In this document: positions 1,657-58,582 of the stretch, one piece after another
Layout: each line of letters opens with the position of its first letter
Position numbering within the stretch: position 1 is the first letter of the stretch
NCBI RefSeq assembly: GCF_006345805.1
Contig: NC_043001.1
Span: 15,810,001 to 15,874,000 of the forward strand
Length of the DNA: 64,000 bases
DNA from: Octopus sinensis
Lineage: Eukaryota
Direction: 5' to 3'
The notes under the pieces: generated by a model
Told to the model about the DNA's origin: nothing
The model's database searches: none
The model's input: only the letters and a program-made list of their open reading frames with translations
Made by a program: the position numbers and the translations under genes

Positions 1657-1855
1657 AACGCCATGTTGAATCGTTAGCTCCTGCACGCATTTTTCTCTCT
1701 CCTTGTTTCTTTTCTGTGTATCTTTCTGTTGAAGAGCGTAGGCTCGAAACGTAAAAGACTTGTTCTATTTCTATTCCTGAGCGCCATACTAATACAATTG
1801 TTTGTTTGTACTCCACCAGCCTTCGTTTTTGTTTATTTTCGTAAACCTTCCCGTT
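1657..1855 (+). mobile_element. Family P1 Penelope-like mini-element with hammerhead-like motif, ending in (TA)n
   Basis: 1721-1758 reads tcttt-CTGTTGA-a-gagc-gtag-gctc-GAAAC-GTA-aaaga, with paired stems I and II. Shares the cctgagcg...taatac tail with other P1 copies. Confidence 0.6.
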
Positions 1856-1872
1856 ATATATATATGTGCTGT

Positions 1873-2136
1873 TGTTGTATTTAGGAATGGTCATGTTGTC
1901 AGTTTAGCCAATAACAGCACATGCACTATATATTTGGAGTTAATTTGCTTCAGCTTGATTTATTTATTACATTAATCTTAATCTTATTTCGGCCAGAGTT
2001 CTTTCGTCACACTTCTGTGACCTCATCAGTGGTCTTTTGATTTCTTCTTTCTTATTTGCGTGTCTCTCCTTACTAACGGTCAGCCATTTTGTTTTTATTG
2101 GCTAAACTGGCAACACGACCATTCCTAAATACAACA
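1873..2136 (-). mobile_element. Penelope-like pLTR fragment with 42-bp inverted repeat enclosing a hammerhead ribozyme
   Basis: 1873-1914 and 2095-2136 are inverted copies with 2 mismatches. A canonical hammerhead core lies between them. Confidence 0.6.
1991..2034 (-). ncRNA. Type-I minimal hammerhead ribozyme motif
   Basis: Minus strand: gacca-CUGAUGA-G-GUCACA-gaag-UGUGAC-GAAA-G-aa-C-UC|uggcc. Intact core, perfect 6-bp stem II, 2-bp stem III, stem I 4/5 bp, CUC cleavage triplet. Confidence 0.7.
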
Positions 2137-2673
2137 TCTGTTTCAACACACGATTTCACATCAAGAATCTTGCAAAACAAATATATAAACGTATATACAC
2201 ACACACAAATATTTTATATAAGCACTGTTACTTTTTCTTCCAGGCTTCTACTGCCGAACCGCTAAGTTACAGAGACCATAAACACGCCAACACCGGTTGG
2301 CAAGCGGTAGTGGAGGACAAACACACACACACATACACATATATTGTGTGTGTGTGTGTGTGTGTGTGTGTATTTTCAAGCTTTTCTTTTATTTGTTTCA
2401 GTCATTAGACTGCGGCCATGCTAGAGCACTGCTATTTCTGCCGAGCAAATCCACTCCAGTACTTCATTTTTGTAAAACCTGGTACTTATTCTATCGATAT
2501 CGTTTGCCGAACCGATATAACCCTGCGCTAAAGTAGAAAACGTACAAAGTACCACGCATTGAGACTGAACCCGAAACCATGTGGCTGGAAAGCAAATTTC
2601 TTACCACACAGCCACATTTACGTGCATGAATGTATGCTTGTGTGTATGAATGTTTGTATGCATATTCTGTATC

Positions 2674-3144: not shown

Positions 3145-3552
3145 GGATCTTTTCGGTCTGAACGGCAGTTTTTTCTAGCGGTGTCATATGAAATTTTCAC
3201 CCATAATTATGATCCCAGTATCGATCTATTGCATTTCAATCTGTTTTAGGGTTAGGGGTGGGTGAAAGGGTATCTTTTTTTTCTTCAGAAATGTAAATAA
3301 ACCCAATCTGTTTCTTAAACGAGGGACATATTCATACGGCACAGAATGTTTTCACCTCAATAGACGTCATTGATTGGTTGAAATTGCAGAAATTGAAGAA
3401 AAAACAACAAATATCTTACAAACTATAGAATTTTCTCAATAAAGCCAAGAGAAAAAGATGTTTTATAAACACATTCTACCAGTATACGAAGTTTAAAAGT
3501 TTTTAGTCACGTGGAAATTATTTTAAAAAACTGCCGTTCAAACCGAAAAGAT
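3145..3552. mobile_element. MITE family M (TIR ggatcttttcggtttgaacggcagtttt), ~410 bp
   Basis: Both TIRs present. Interior matches 11944-12357 in the opposite orientation. No clear TSD in this copy. Confidence 0.85.
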
Positions 3553-8035: not shown

Positions 8036-8213
8036 TGTGACTGCATGTGTACCGTTGGCGATTTTGTTTTTCCCTCTGTCTTCCATTCTCTGGATCTTTC
8101 CGACGAAGAGCTCCGCTCGAAACATTAAACCCTCCTTCTTTCCTGAGCATCCAATAATACTATATTTGTTCCATGTCCTCACATTGTTGTGTTTTCATGT
8201 TTGGATTAACTTT
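8036..8213 (+). mobile_element. Family P1 Penelope-like mini-element
   Basis: ttt-ccgacga-a-gagc-tcc-gctc-gaaac-att-aaa (8097-8130). Ends in tttggattaac + TA. Confidence 0.6.
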
Positions 8214-11768: not shown

Positions 11769-12406
11769 CCCTTTTGTTACCAAATTCCAGTTGAAATACC
11801 ATGCTTTCCTTTCAATTAATTTCGAAAATAATAAAGAATTTAGTAAAATAACTTATTAAAAAAGCTGATATTTGGGACAAAAATGAACACGAAATTTTGG
11901 TGGAAAGGTTTTAATTCACATCTCACCTAAAATTGTTAAATTGGGATCTTTTCGGTTTGAACGGCAGTTTTTTAAGATAATTTCCACGTAACTAAACACT
12001 TTTAAACTTCGTATACAGGTAGAATGTGTTTATAAAACATCTTTTTCTCTTGGCTTTATTGAGAAAATTCTATAGTTTGTAAGATAATTTGTTGTTTTTT
12101 TTTCTTCAATTTCTGCAATTTCAACCAATCAATGACATCTATTGAGGTGAAAACATTCTGTGCCGTATGAATATGTCCCTCGTTTAAGAAACAGATTGGG
12201 TTTATTTAACATTTCTGAAGAAAAAAAGATACCCTTCCCCCCACCCCTAACCCTAAAACAGATTGAAATGCAATAGATTGATACTAAGGTCATAATTATG
12301 AGAGACAATTTCATGTGACACTGCTAAAAAAAACTGCCGGTCAAACCGAAAAGATCCTTAAATTGTTATAAAACTAGATATTTTGAGCAGGTTGGTACCA
12401 ACAGGG
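11769..12406. mobile_element. piggyBac-like non-autonomous element (TTAA-CCC...GGG-TTAA) hosting a nested MITE
   Basis: Ends ttaa|cccttttgttaccaa and ttggtaccaacaggg|ttaa. A degenerate partial copy precedes it at about 11608-11764. Confidence 0.55.
11944..12357. mobile_element. MITE family M with 8-bp TSD
   Basis: TIRs ggatcttttcggtttgaacggcagttttt / aaaaactgccggtcaaaccgaaaagatcc. TSD ttaaattg at 11936-11943 and 12358-12365. Confidence 0.9.
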
Positions 12407-21571: not shown

Positions 21572-21773
21572 ATGTGACCTCGTGTGTACCGTTGGCGATT
21601 TTTTTTCCTCTGTCTTCCCTTCTTTCCTTCTCCTATGTTTCCGACGAAGAGCTCCGCTCGAAACGTTAAACCCTCCTTCTTTCCTTCTTTCCTGAGCGTC
21701 CAATAATACTATATTTGTTCCACGTCCTCGCGTTGTTGTGTTTTCTCTTTGTGTTTTCATGTTTGGATTAACT
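21572..21773 (+). mobile_element. Family P1 Penelope-like mini-element
   Basis: gttt-CCGACGA-a-gagc-tcc-gctc-GAAAC-GTT-aaac (21637-21671). Ends in tttggattaac(TA)n. Confidence 0.6.
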
Positions 21774-31046: not shown

Positions 31047-31210
31047 GCCCTGACGTAGTACCAGGCAGTGGCTCTCATGGCTTCTGATCTTAACTGATTG
31101 GAAGTGTTATCATGTACATTGTTTTGTCTTGGGATAAAAGATGGGCTACAGCAAATATTCTGCTCAATACCACAGATTTGCTTGTCAGTTGTTTGACCGT
31201 AACCAGTTGA
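31043..31210 (+). mobile_element. Family F element, 5' part, following (TAA)n
   Basis: aaatgccctga...accaggcagtggctctc...gcaaatattctgctc; homologous to 32644-33245 and 33249-33775. Confidence 0.7.
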
Positions 31211-31845
31211 GGGTCAACCTCAGGAATGAGCAAGTGTCTCCGTTGTGCCGTATCTGCAATAGAGTGGATGAAACCATTACCTACATCATGAACAAATGTC
31301 CTAGACTAGTCCAAAACCACTACAAATTGTGGCGACACGATCAGTTTGCGAAAGTGAAAGTGCTACATGGGGAAACTGTGCGAAAAGTGGGGGGGCTAGA
31401 GAGATAGGCAAGACGTGGTATGAGCACAACTACAGAGAGTGACGGATTTGGAGACTAAGCAGAATCCTCTGGGATTTCCCAATCCGAACAGATCAGGTGC
31501 TAGAGCATAACGGACCGGACCTAGTGGTGGTGGACAAGGTGCGCCACATATTCTATATCGCTGATGTTGCGTACCTCTTTGATGCACGAATAGTCAAGAA
31601 GGAAGGCGAAAAGATAAATAGATACAACCCTCTTAAGTACGAAATTGCTCGGTTATGGAAAATGAAGAAGGTGAAGACGGTACCAGTAATTGCTGGGTCC
31701 TTGGGAAGAGTATCGGAAGGCATCAAGAGGAATACAAAGGAAATTGGAATAGAGTGTTGAAGCATGACCAGTAGACAAGTGCCACCTTAGTCTGCTGGCT
31801 GTGGACAACTGACACTTTCCGTCATACCCAGCAAAGTGAGTTTTC

Positions 31846-41407: not shown

Positions 41408-42199
41408 ATATATAAATTTATATATGAAATAAAAGTATATATGAATACATACATCCACATGCAGTTATATATTAATGATGTACATAAATACATGGCAGGT
41501 ATACATAATACTGAAATACGCATAGAGTAAACACGTGCAGACAAATATATTAATATAACAAATTTAAAAAATAATAATAAAACCATAAATAAATGAAGAG
41601 ACAAAGTATTTCTGTTTATTTAGAAACCTACAATGAACAGGTAAGACGCTAAACTCTAAATTTCACAGGGTACAACCTCAAAGTTGACACCGCTCCGCTA
41701 AACGCAGAAAATTTCTGTCTCGCTATTGGCTCGCTATTTAAACCTCTGTAACTTTTTCTCCAATTTTTTTTTTCTCCACAACATTATACCTTCAAAGCAA
41801 TGAGTCTGGAATGCTACATTATTATAGTAGATTTTTAGAATTTTTACTGTCTTTTAAAAAAATGCATAATTTGTGAATGAAAAAAAAAAAAAAAGATTCG
41901 TTTAGCCTTATGTCGTATCTTCAGACCTCGAACACAGCTGGCTCAGACCCCTTCAAAATATATACAAACGGTATATATATGTATATATGTCCAGAAGGTT
42001 GTTTGTTATGGCCTGTCATTGACCGACCATTGGTTCGCACGTGTCATTTGCGATTCGGCCGAAGCAAATAGCCGGTGACACACAACCGTTACACACCTGG
42101 AGGGAGGAAAACGTCATGGTCAGTTAATTCCGTAAATAAAAAATTTCAGAATTCAAGAACTACATGAGAGTGTGCGTGTGTATGTGTGTATACATATAT

Positions 42200-51614: not shown

Positions 51615-52339
51615 TGTGTGCGCGTGTGTGTGTGCGTGCGTGAGTGTGTATACATTAACTCATACAAGTCGTAATATTGAACCTTTTATGGAATCTGCTA
51701 AAAATTGTCCTTTGAAACAGCTGTACGCACACATACACACGCACACACACTCACACACAAGCACACACATACACACATACACGCACATTGACAACACACA
51801 TACACACATTGATACATTCATACACGCACGCACTTGCGTACAACACAATGTAATTCTGAAGTAATGAACGAGATTTAACAATCGGGAAACGTAATGTCGT
51901 GGAAATACAGAGTTTCATACACCTAAACACACAAAAGCATGTAACACAATAACACATGTTCACACAAATGAGGAAACACACACACACACACACACAGACA
52001 CGTACTTATATGTGTGTGTGTGGGAATATATGTGTGTGTGTTTTACACACATGTACATATACATAATATCTCACGGTGGAATAGATATGGTTTAATAATA
52101 GAGGATGATAGCGGTAGTGGTGGTGGTGGTAATGTGGTAGTGTTTGGGTGGTATGTGGTGGTGTGTGGTGTAGTTTGGTGTTGTGTGTGTTGGTGGTGTT
52201 GTAGTGTGTGGGGTGGTGGTTTGGTGTTAGGTGGGTGGTGGTTGGTAGTGGTGTATGGTGTGGTGTTGTGGTGTTAGTGTTGGTGTGTGTGGTGGTGGTG
52301 GTGGTGTAGTGGTAGTGGTGGTGTTGTAGTGGTGGTGTG

Positions 52340-53065
52340 TTTGACGGTGGTGGTGGTGGTAGTGTTGGTGTTGTAGGTGGTGGTGGTGTTGACGGTGGTG
52401 GTGGTGGTAGTGTTGGTGTTGTAGGTGGTGGTGGTGTTGACGGTGTGGTGGTAGTGGTAGTGTGTTGGTGTGTGTAGGTGGGTGGTGTTGAGGTGTGGTG
52501 GTGGTGGTAGTGTTGGTGTTGTAGGTGGTGGTGGTGTTGACGGTGGTGGTGGTGGTAGTGTTGGTGTTGTAGGTGGTGGTGGTGTTGACGGTGGTGGTGG
52601 TGGTAGTGTTGGTGTTGTAGGTGGTGGTGGTGTTGTTGACGGTGGTGGTGGTGGTAGTGTTGGTGTTGTAGGTGGTGGTGGTGTTGACGGTGGTGGTGGT
52701 GGTAGTGTTGGTGTTGTAGGTGGTGGTGGTGTTGACGGTGGTGGTGGTGGTGGTGTGTTGGTGTGTGGTGGTGGTGGTGTTGACGGTGGGGTGTGGTAGG
52801 TTGGTGTTGTAGGTGGTGGTGGTGTTGACGGTGGTGGTGGTGGTAGTGTTGGTGTTGTAGGTGGTGGTGGTGTTGACGGTGGTGGTGGTGGTAGTGTTGG
52901 TGTTGTAGGTGGTGGTGGTGTTGACGGTGGTGGTGGTGGTAGTGTTGGTGTTGTAGGTGGTGGTGGTGTTGACGGTGGTGTGGTGTAGTGTTGGTGTTGT
53001 AGGTGGTGGTGGTGTTGACGGTGGTGGTGGTGGAGTGTGGTGTTGAGGTGGTGGTGGTGTTGACG
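52340..53065. repeat. GT-rich minisatellite, ~48-bp unit (gttgacggtggtggtggtggtagtgttggtgttgtaggtggtggtggt), ~14 copies
   Basis: Periodicity is visible in the DNA and as the 16-aa repeat HHHRQHHHHLQHQHYH in the minus-strand ORF. Confidence 0.9.
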
Positions 53066-54258
53066 GCGGTGGTGGGTGGTGTAGTGTTGGTGTTGTGTGG
53101 GTGGTGTTGACTGGTGGTGGTGTAGTGTTGTGTTGAGGTGTTACATATCACCACACGTGGCACACGGTTGTCAATATTTCACAAGCATTTGGTGTGCGAC
53201 ATGGATGTTGGGTTTTGTGCAGTGAATGTACACAGTATACCTATGAGTTTACATGACACACACAAACACACAGACGCACACGCACATTGCACATACGAAT
53301 ACATGCATACATGCATAATTACACACACACATACGCACACAAACACACACACACACACACATGCCTGCATATGCGTGTATGAAAAACTAGCTGAGCAGAC
53401 ATTCATAATTTCGTATATGCACACAGTTCTGAGTGTGTGTGTGTGTGTGATTGTGTGTGTGTGTGTGCGTGTGTATGTGTATAGTGTATATTATATATAT
53501 GTACTGTGTGCATGTATGTATATGTGTGCGTGTGTGAGTGTGTGTGTGAACGTTTCTGCTATCAGAATAAAGAGGTCCTTTGTGTTTTGTAATATATTAA
53601 AAAAAAAACTACAAAAATACTCTACACGAACAAAAAAAACATAAAGCAAAAGTAGGGCAATGAAAATCTTCACACACACACACACACACATACACACACG
53701 CACGGACACACACACACGCTCACACACACAACCACGAAGAAAAACATACACAAACACACTCATATTATATAATATATATATATATATATATGCATGTATG
53801 TATGTATGTATGTAATGTATATATATATATATGTATATTATATATATATATATATATCTATATATATATATATAAGTGTGTGTTGTGTGTGTGTGTGCGT
53901 TCGCGCATGTATATACACACGTGCGCTCGCACACAATGTTAGTGTCAATATACGGAGTGTGTATACACATACAACTGGTTACCCGCCAACGACAGAACCT
54001 TTGTGAGAGAAAACAGCTAAATCTGCCTCAAATCATCACATCCTTAATGTCTGTGACGTGGGAAGAACACGTTAGACGATGTAGTCCTAGGTAGACAAAT
54101 ACCTGGGTAAAAGAAAGATAAAGCCGAAACGAGCATGTATGTCTTGAACGGTTTTGTTTCTGGGCGCCTTAATCTGGTTTGACCTTGGGCTAAAGAAAAA
54201 CAACAACAACAGTAACAGCAGCAGCAGCAGCAGCAACAACAACAGCAACAATACCACT

Positions 54259-57125: not shown

Positions 57126-57604
57126 ACACACCATATCGTTTCTTTACAATGTTGCTACCGAGCAAATATAACTGGCCGCTCTAAAGAAATTCTCAACTTA
57201 CAACCAAGAAACACATACATATATATCATAGTCCAAGTCTATAGTAGAAGACACTTGCCTAAGGTGCAACAGGAGGGGCTTGAACACCAAACTATGTGCT
57301 TGGGCACAAACTTCTTACCACATCGACGCGTGGAGCAACGCGAAAGGATGTGCGAACAACACGAAAGGAAGTGACTCAACACACCGCTCGGTCCTAGAAT
57401 CGTACTCACAGTCTTATGATCGCGAGCCCAAAATCTTAACCATTAGGGCCCGCGTTGTCACATCCACTTAATTTACGTTTTCGAAAAGCTGTGGGATTTC
57501 CGGCAATGCAAAGGCAACGTGTTCATTAAAGATGTTTCTGTGGGCACAAACTCAGCTATTTTTAGTCGTTTATCGATACCATCGATTTTGGTACTCGATT
57601 GATA

Positions 57605-58164
57605 TTTGGTTGTCCGGAAAGTTCGTGCCGATTTTTAAAGGAAAGAAAAAGGTCAATAAATACTTGCCATTACATTTTTAATCAACCAATATGAACCATT
57701 TTGTTGCACATGTCTCCATCTTTCCTTTAACTTGAAAATACCTCTTCCAAGAATTGTGGTGGTTTCATGGCAAAGAATTCAATCAAGGTATCTTTTTACG
57801 TCATCCAGGGAATTGAAATTTTTACCATTAAGACTATTCTGCAGAGACCTGAATAAGTGGAAATCCGAAGGAGCAATATCTGGGGAATATGGAGGGTGGA
57901 GTAACATCCCAGCCGAGCTGCAGCAATTTTTGTCTGGTTCCCAAAGCATCAAGTGCCGAAAATGAACTTTCTTATCTTCCATTTTAAAAGGTTACAGAAT
58001 TAACACAGCTTATAGGAACATAAACCTTCTTCCACGTAAAGATAGCTTAAACTGTGCTCTAAATGGAGGTGTAGTCAAATCCTATTTTATGGACTCAACC
58101 ATGTTCTAAAATAAGTCGAAAGGTAAGCGACTATAAATCGGTACGAACTTTCCGGACAACCCAA
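57605..58164 (-). mobile_element. Internally deleted mariner transposon with 30-bp TIRs and TA TSD
   Basis: TIRs tttggttgtccggaaagttcgtgccgattt / aaatcggtacgaactttccggacaacccaa, flanked by TA. ORF 57779-57982 fuses the N-terminus MEDKKVHFRHLMLWE to HPPYSPDIAPSDFHLFRSLQNSL. Confidence 0.95.
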
Positions 58165-58582
58165 TATTTTATTTTATTGCTCCTGGCGGTGTGATAAGCA
58201 AAAGTTTTCTTCAGCTGGGACTGAAATCGGGCTGCAAAAAGTCAGAAGTAACCCCTGAAAATTATGCAAGATTATTTTTAAGCTCTAATGACATGTGGTA
58301 ACTTTCCACCGTTGTTGTTACTTTCAGATTCCAGCTGAGGAGTTTTTTTTTGTGTTTTTCCTGGGTGGGAGCCAGTCATTTCTTTATATACGAAACAGGG
58401 AAAGAATTTAAAAAAAAGGGTATGAGTGGCTGTGCGGTAAGAAACTTGCTTCACGATCACATGGTTCCGGGTTCAGGCCCACTGCGTGGCACCTTGGGCA
58501 ACTGTCTTCTAATATATCCTTGAGCCGACCAAAGACTTATGAGTGGATTTGGTTGACGGAAACTGAAAGAAGCCCATTGTGT

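Follow-up and report, generated by a model that had tools for sequence, protein, structure and literature searches.

The hammerhead motif at this locus is enclosed by a 42-bp inverted repeat, which raises the question of whether the repeat is a frame built for the ribozyme or a by-product of insertion. The locus lies at positions 1873 to 2136 of a 64,000-nt stretch of Octopus sinensis DNA (NC_043001.1, positions 15,810,001 to 15,874,000), referred to here as the window; all positions are those of the window.

A minimal hammerhead motif on the minus strand

The core, the stems and C17 were read from the sequence, and the motif was annotated as follows:
1991..2035, minus strand: minimal type I hammerhead motif
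2034-2030 / 1995-1991, minus strand: stem I, 4 of 5 pairs, with an A2033-C1992 mismatch
2029-2023, minus strand: core CUGAUGA
2022, minus strand: unpaired extra G
2021-2016 / 2011-2006, minus strand: stem II, 6 Watson-Crick pairs and a 4-nt loop
2005-2002, minus strand: GAAA
A2002-U1997 and G2001-C1998, minus strand: stem III, 2 bp, with a 2-nt AA loop
1996, minus strand: C17, with the predicted cut between 1996 and 1995

The first-pass annotation had described an intact CUGAUGA/GAAA core, an extra G and a perfect 6-bp stem II, and all were found at the minus-strand coordinates that it gave. The 2-bp stem III with its 2-nt loop, the 4/5-bp stem I and the 1996/1995 cut site were likewise as it had drawn them. 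It had also called this the best-preserved ribozyme of the window, and of the seven hammerhead-like sites present it is indeed the sole one with an unaltered CUGANGA core. Its term 'canonical' was wrong: the motif has no Rfam hammerhead match, stem I has 4 pairs and stem III has 2. Pairing of stem I beyond 4-5 bp is absent from the locus. The covariance-model check that it proposed returned no hammerhead family, either at the gathering score over the full window or with E up to 10 over 1700-2300 and 1975-2055. Weak Rfam matches to non-hammerhead families were attributed to chance. An alternative fold, in which 2022-2018 pairs with 1995-1991 as stem II and a second GAAA is used, was rejected (probability at most 0.01, stem I partner missing).

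A type I descriptor requiring at least 6 pairs in stem II gave a single match in the window, and a match in just 1 of 1000 block-wise dinucleotide shuffles; relaxed to at least 4 pairs, the same descriptor matched in 15 of 1000. A chance motif would be consistent with the lack of an Rfam match and with the fold of the 56-nt ribozyme alone, which was unremarkable (z = -0.38, 66 of 200 shuffles equally good). However, the single match among 1000 shuffled windows, together with the position of the motif in a high-copy family where a ribozyme of a Penelope-like element (PLE) is expected, leaves that explanation a practically negligible probability.

We compared the motif with the minimal hammerheads of metazoan PLEs (Cervera and de la Pena 2014; PMC4209133). 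In the available part of that report, these have a long helix II, a helix I of 4-5 bp, an unpaired base between positions 9 and 10.1, a G10.1-C11.1 pair, and palindromic positions 15.2-16.2 and loop 3. The present motif shares the intact CUGANGA ... GAAA ... UH core, the unpaired base (G2022) followed by G2021-C2006 as G10.1-C11.1, a stem II of more than 4 bp (6 bp), a stem I of 4 pairs without loop 1, and an occurrence as dispersed single copies. It differs in that its loop III is not palindromic, its stem I contains a mismatch or bulge, and A9 varies within the family. The extra base also differs, being G here and A, C or U in the published consensus; G occurs in one row of the supplement of PMC4209133, outside that consensus.

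With non-LTR retrozymes, the motif shares the type I topology, the 2-bp helix III and a setting in a short non-coding repeat (PMC7229834; bioRxiv 10.64898/2026.07.22.740005). Unlike retrozymes as reported in PMC7229834, it is not arranged head to tail in tandem, being a single copy in the window, and it lacks the 6-bp helix I with loop 1-loop 2 contact of canonical type I and retrozyme motifs. According to parts of the same two sources, animal non-LTR retrozymes may descend from PLE pseudo-LTRs. By sequence and by the portions of the literature considered here, the ribozyme appears to be a variant of the PLE minimal hammerhead, neither canonical nor of retrozyme type (PMC7229834; bioRxiv 10.64898/2026.07.22.740005; PMC6765202).

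Other repeats in the window

About half of the window was masked as repeats and microsatellites. Its common repeats presumably resemble octopus SINEs. A relaxed hammerhead scan returned six motifs of one other family and two matches without such likeness. The six were annotated as altered-core hammerhead copies:
1726-1749, plus strand: altered-core copy
8100-8122, plus strand: altered-core copy
21641-21663, plus strand: altered-core copy
14873-14850, minus strand: altered-core copy
5299-5276, minus strand: altered-core copy
1160-1138, minus strand: altered-core copy
1690..1855, plus strand: unrelated high-copy repeat carrying the degenerate hammerhead at 1726-1749; a separate element that ends in the same (TA)n as the unit studied here

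These copies have an extra A before a stem II of 4-5 bp and T-rich flanks, and a depth peak at 1726-1747 indicates a very high copy number. The repeat that carries them is likely another PLE family. The first-pass annotation had assigned the ribozyme studied here to a different family from its P1; taking P1 as these six motifs, BLAST found no similarity between them and our motif.

Several other structures were observed. A perfect 27-bp inverted repeat (959-985 / 1657-1683) surrounds a SINE-like repeat together with one of the hammerhead-bearing copies; one of its arms abuts (TA)n and the other abuts the repeat at 1690. The first 106 positions form a palindrome of two 53-nt arms, 94% complementary and without a spacer, which has a 17-nt word in common with the unit at 3147-3552. 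That unit and another at 11944-12357 are MITE-like, about 400 bp long, and have the same terminal inverted repeats of 28-30 bp. A further unit, at 57602-58167, has terminal inverted repeats of 36 bp and a minus-strand frame (57782-57991) that was unmatched in Pfam and that we take, by motif, to resemble the end of a mariner transposase. A SINE-like repeat begins with three tandem copies of a 62-65-nt unit (1292-1483), and 52000-54000, with a GC skew of 0.59 and long low-complexity frames, is probably simple repeat.

Inverted arms and extent of the repeat unit

The layout around the ribozyme was annotated as follows:
1855..1865, no strand: (TA)n microsatellite at the left end, putative target site
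1873..1914, minus strand: arm 1, the 3' end of the direct copy
1873..2094, minus strand: direct, 5'-truncated copy of the element end, a putative pseudo-LTR, delimited by depth and by contigs of other copies
2094-2036, ribozyme, 1990-1915, arm 1, minus strand: order of parts in the direct copy, namely A-rich leader, ribozyme, spacer and arm 1
2095..2136, plus strand: arm 2, an inverted copy of the 42 bases of arm 1
2137..2181, plus strand: one-sided 45-bp extension, a putative PLE 'tail', beside arm 2 and absent at arm 1
2182..2210, no strand: (TA)/(CA) microsatellite at the right end, putative target site, with unique DNA beyond
1864-1877 with 1909-1922, no strand: second, short inverted repeat, 13/14 matching, which encloses most of arm 1

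The inverted arms reported earlier at 1873-1914 and 2095-2136 were confirmed, agreeing at 40 of 42 bases (mismatches 1893/2116 and 1899/2110). As an extent for the unit, 1873..2136 was correct for the arms but fell short at the right, where the repeat continues to about 2181. A 281-nt region spanning the locus folds at -84.6 kcal/mol (z = -10; none of 200 shuffles as good), a stability owed wholly to the arms. The two arms differ at 2 of 42 positions, as against 10-23 letters per 105-135 in other copies. They also have minority alleles in common, at 1895/2114 (70-78% of depth differs) and 1874/2135 (85-90% differs). Inverted repeats do not stand at both termini, as they would in a MITE; high-copy sequence continues for 45 bp past arm 2 only. 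No target duplication is visible beyond (TA)n, and the flanking (TA)n hides any duplication of TA.

The short inverted repeat at 1864-1922 is private or nearly private to this locus. Other copies differ at 1915 (98-99.9% of depth), 1917 (86-99%) and 1922 (73-97%). The departures of the present copy at these three positions all complement the flank, which suggests a local template switch.

The repeat family in public contigs

Twenty-four public runs were listed, of which 20 contain part of 1660-2330, and four were analysed: X1, X2 and X3 as contigs and X22 as raw reads. The pieces, joints and variants described below are from 24 of about 76,700 pieces, 15 of 70 joints and 40 of 70 variants. The unique flank at 2178-2310 was found in contigs with 0-1 differences, at a depth of 55 (X1), 48 (X2) and 4.7 (X3). 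By this near-identical flank, runs X1-X3 appear to come from the window's organism or a very close one, and one of the three may be the sample from which the window derives. Over the ribozyme, summed contig depth exceeds the depth of the unique flank contig by a factor of 14,000-82,000, or of 450-2,650 after division by 31, the worst-case contig overlap; this is a depth ratio and not a measured copy number. From summed depth, the family comprises at least hundreds to thousands of copies.

High depth begins at the left (TA)n and continues to about 2190; the contigs of X1-X3 show a high-copy repeat at about 1864-2181, a larger unit than the one first annotated. Summed depth is high in every bin of the direct copy (1873..2094) in 3 of 4 runs, and the extension bins (2144-2187) are among the deepest of the unit. 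At 1855-1865, 160 contigs of X2 and 87 of X3 exit the window into (TA)n. In contigs of other copies, the spacer continues into arm 1 (1873-2012, 1890-2004, 1904-2013 and 1909-2030), which indicates that ribozyme, spacer and arm 1 follow one another in this order in the family. In one other copy, arm 1 is joined to 2121 onward on the opposite strand (1890-2121), and therefore the 3' end of the family consists of the arm plus the extension; another copy ends at 2181. Single joints of varied position were also recorded among those listed, with inversion or truncation points at 1914-2039, 1961-2078, 1978-2143, 2066-2131 and 2072-2170.

The junction at arm 2 bears on whether the hairpin is a fixed feature of the family. 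Arms and ribozyme could be copied as one unit by a non-autonomous, PLE-derived fold-back family, MITE- or retrozyme-like, the joints being deletion derivatives. Consistent with this, joints of other copies cluster near the junction among those listed (1983-2094, 1986-2092, 1986-2093, 2004-2090, 2015-2099, 2089-2131 and 2092-2166), depth in the bin 2078-2099 remains at about 60-90% of that of neighbouring bins, and one copy has arm 1 continuing into the extension. However, none of the 24 listed pieces spans the junction: five lose their match to the window at 2090-2096 and carry on for 17-31 unmatched letters, and another two terminate at this point. The clustering at 2090-2099 is also partly forced, as a match to arm 2 cannot extend further, and for four of the clustered joints, labelled 'between: not known', the sides are shorter than 30 letters. 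Given also that the extension is confined to one end and that no target duplication other than (TA)n can be seen, we consider such a family unlikely.

The raw reads of X22, which has the same species label as X2, included none over the element; they fall on the microsatellite, with a few on the neighbouring repeat. X22 is probably another organism, although the zero element reads remain a point against a PLE insertion. In one X1 contig (depth 45), 1865 is connected to 2190 through 9 letters; this contig may represent an empty site lacking the element, or a different microsatellite locus. Searches for the ribozyme DNA pattern gave 0 matches in metagenome contigs, viral contigs and prokaryote genomes. 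The extension pattern matched one metagenome locus (L001), where the likeness was confined to those 21 bases and was set aside as chance.

A reading frame in the arm and extension

Arm 1 contains an ATG at 1894-1892, 101 nt past the cut site, whose first seven codons read MTIPKYN; an in-frame stop lies four codons ahead of it. Arm 2 has ACG at 2115-2117 in the corresponding place, and through arm 2 and the extension the frame is open until a stop at 2186. Of the five variants listed in 2115-2183, four are synonymous in the ATG frame, as against 0-1 in each of the other five frames (P about 0.007, or 0.04 after allowing for six frames; five variants only), and the indel listed there is of 3 nt. 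Read by hand, loose-end consensuses of related families (2131, 2142) have the same or similar residues from an ATG. Arm and extension thus read like the first codons of an ORF, and, counted from the ATG, the element ends lie at about +22 and +67.

Queries of 26-40 residues from the short frame, which are weak tests, returned no protein homologue, and an Atlas protein search gave a best score of 0.77 and no lead. No reverse transcriptase or GIY-YIG ORF is attached at this locus, and the tie of the element to a reverse transcriptase is one that we infer. A second ATG, inside the ribozyme core at 2026, opens 19 codons on the minus strand before a stop and was unmatched in Pfam.

The coding character of the arm bears on a further explanation, namely that a DNA-transposon MITE with 42-bp terminal repeats captured an unrelated hammerhead fragment. 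MITE-like units do occur in the window (3147-3552, 11944-12357 and 57602-58167). Against this origin, many copies have arm 1 in one piece with the ribozyme, arm 2 does not form a terminus, the extension is one-sided and the arm reads as coding sequence; we regard it as hardly probable at all.

The locus as a probable truncated PLE insertion

The layout corresponds to published descriptions of PLE insertions. Craig et al. (2021) report an inverted 5'-truncated copy, a tail of 30-40 bp at one end and (TA)n targets (PMC8557442, in part). For an anole PLE, Frangieh et al. (2024) describe reverse transcription starting at two sites within the ORF start, the tail being the stretch between the two starts, downstream of the ribozyme (PMC11167929, in part). 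The present locus resembles these insertions in its dispersed, high-copy, 5'-truncated copies, in an inverted partial copy (arm 2) adjoining the 5' end, and in a tail on one end only with (TA)n at both ends (PMC8557442). It also resembles them in having a ribozyme just before or at the ORF start and an element end inside the first codons (PMC11167929). It differs in the length of the extension (45 bp, as against 30-40 bp in PMC8557442) and in the placing of the ATG, which follows the cut site by 101 nt; the anole element is cut 26 nt after its ATG (PMC11167929). The ORF for a telomerase-like reverse transcriptase and GIY-YIG endonuclease of full-length PLEs was not seen at the locus, and so no clade name is given. 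Penelope-like families have been reported in Octopus vulgaris (PMC13282606, in part).

We consider it likely that motif and arms together are a short, 5'-truncated PLE insertion, in which the arms were made at insertion and the ribozyme is a near-inactive passenger. In the RNA of such an element, which has minus-strand sense, the hammerhead would precede the ORF start by about 100 nt. The protein of the element would have nicked the (TA)n site and initiated reverse transcription at two points within the start of the ORF, about +22 and +67. One cDNA would then have yielded the direct copy (2094-1873) without a tail and the other the inverted copy (2095-2181) with a tail. Where elements are full-length and in tandem, precursor RNA would be cut by the ribozyme as a dimer or with the help of protein.

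Against a PLE insertion stand the lack of an RT or GIY-YIG ORF and of a protein homologue of the short frame, the non-palindromic loop III, the extra G and the 45-bp extension. In addition, several joints near 2089-2099 could mean that the arm-2 junction is fixed in the family. No feature that we tested failed, and by comparison with published elements we most likely have a PLE-type insertion, its link to a reverse transcriptase being presumptive. The inverted repeat itself is best explained as having arisen in the course of retrotransposon insertion, and not as a frame built for the ribozyme.

Of seven papers listed in a literature search on octopus hammerhead ribozymes, none was dedicated to such motifs, judged by titles and the starts of abstracts, which is no proof that the family is undescribed. 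The word hammerhead is absent from the main text of the 2026 repeat annotation of Octopus vulgaris (PMC13282606).

Expected cleavage by this copy

The first-pass annotation had proposed that the ribozyme, if in a minus-strand intron, could cut the pre-mRNA. The corresponding explanation, of an active monomer that cuts a minus-strand host pre-mRNA with the arms aiding its fold, draws on the intact core bases, on a pairing probability of about 0.84 for stem II in the predicted fold of the locus, and on reports that canonical invertebrate type I ribozymes with a 2-bp helix III cleave as monomers (PMC7229834, in part). However, in the same fold the pairs of stem I have probabilities of 0.02-0.07, the extended helix I and loop 1 are absent, and this copy lacks the G at 2035 that is present in 95-99.5% of the contig depth of other copies. 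By inspection, that G would allow a 5-pair stem I with A2033 bulged. According to parts of two reports, single minimal motifs failed to cleave: a lone PLE hammerhead motif did not cleave in vitro, where dimers cleaved weakly (PMC4209133), and an anole PLE ribozyme cut only once the element's protein was added (PMC11167929). Nor is the core strictly kept in the family, A9 differing in 30-55% and C17 in 8-33% of contig depth.

The intron idea was also unsupported on the side of the host: none of 371 window frames (at least 35 codons, outside masked repeats) reached the Pfam cut-off, so that no host exon was found on either strand, a search in which short exons can be missed. Two matches fell below the cut-off, a zinc-finger fragment at 42009-42113 and a zf-RVT match at 31138-31404 (plus strand; E 0.003), the latter probably a LINE remnant. 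An active monomer acting on a host transcript seems very unlikely.

Cleavage as a dimer would also be disfavoured here. The loop III segment, 2002-1997, is not palindromic, and its self-duplex is predicted at +1.4 kcal/mol. The single changes that would restore the palindrome are T>A on the plus strand at 1999 or 2000, and neither was counted at 5% in X1, X2 or X3; both T>A places counted per contig run lie elsewhere (1730 and 2154). By these contigs, a non-palindromic loop III is apparently a family-wide trait. BLAST found no second ribozyme copy of this type within the window. As a solitary ribozyme that lacks a partner and has a weakened stem I, this copy is expected to cut poorly, and the predicted folds suggest that it is probably a near-inactive passenger that cuts little or not at all. 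In the anole PLE, ribozyme cutting was dispensable for insertion in vitro (PMC11167929, in part).

A more elaborate possibility is a non-autonomous, fold-back derivative of a PLE that spreads as a fixed hairpin and whose hammerhead, having lost the palindromic loop III, cuts either as a clamped monomer or together with a complementary partner RNA, and not as a homodimer. We hold this to be a long shot. If true, cleavage sites numbering hundreds to thousands would lie within RNA duplexes of 42 bp throughout a cephalopod-like genome.

Implications

Read as a truncated PLE insertion, the locus in itself matters little, as reports count such motifs in the thousands per invertebrate genome. Within 320 bp, it would nevertheless display the PLE insertion footprint that the two-start model predicts: a direct copy without a tail, an inverted copy with a tail, and ends inside the first codons. 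A family with a non-palindromic loop III and frequent change at A9 may also offer a natural test of whether these ribozymes must cut.
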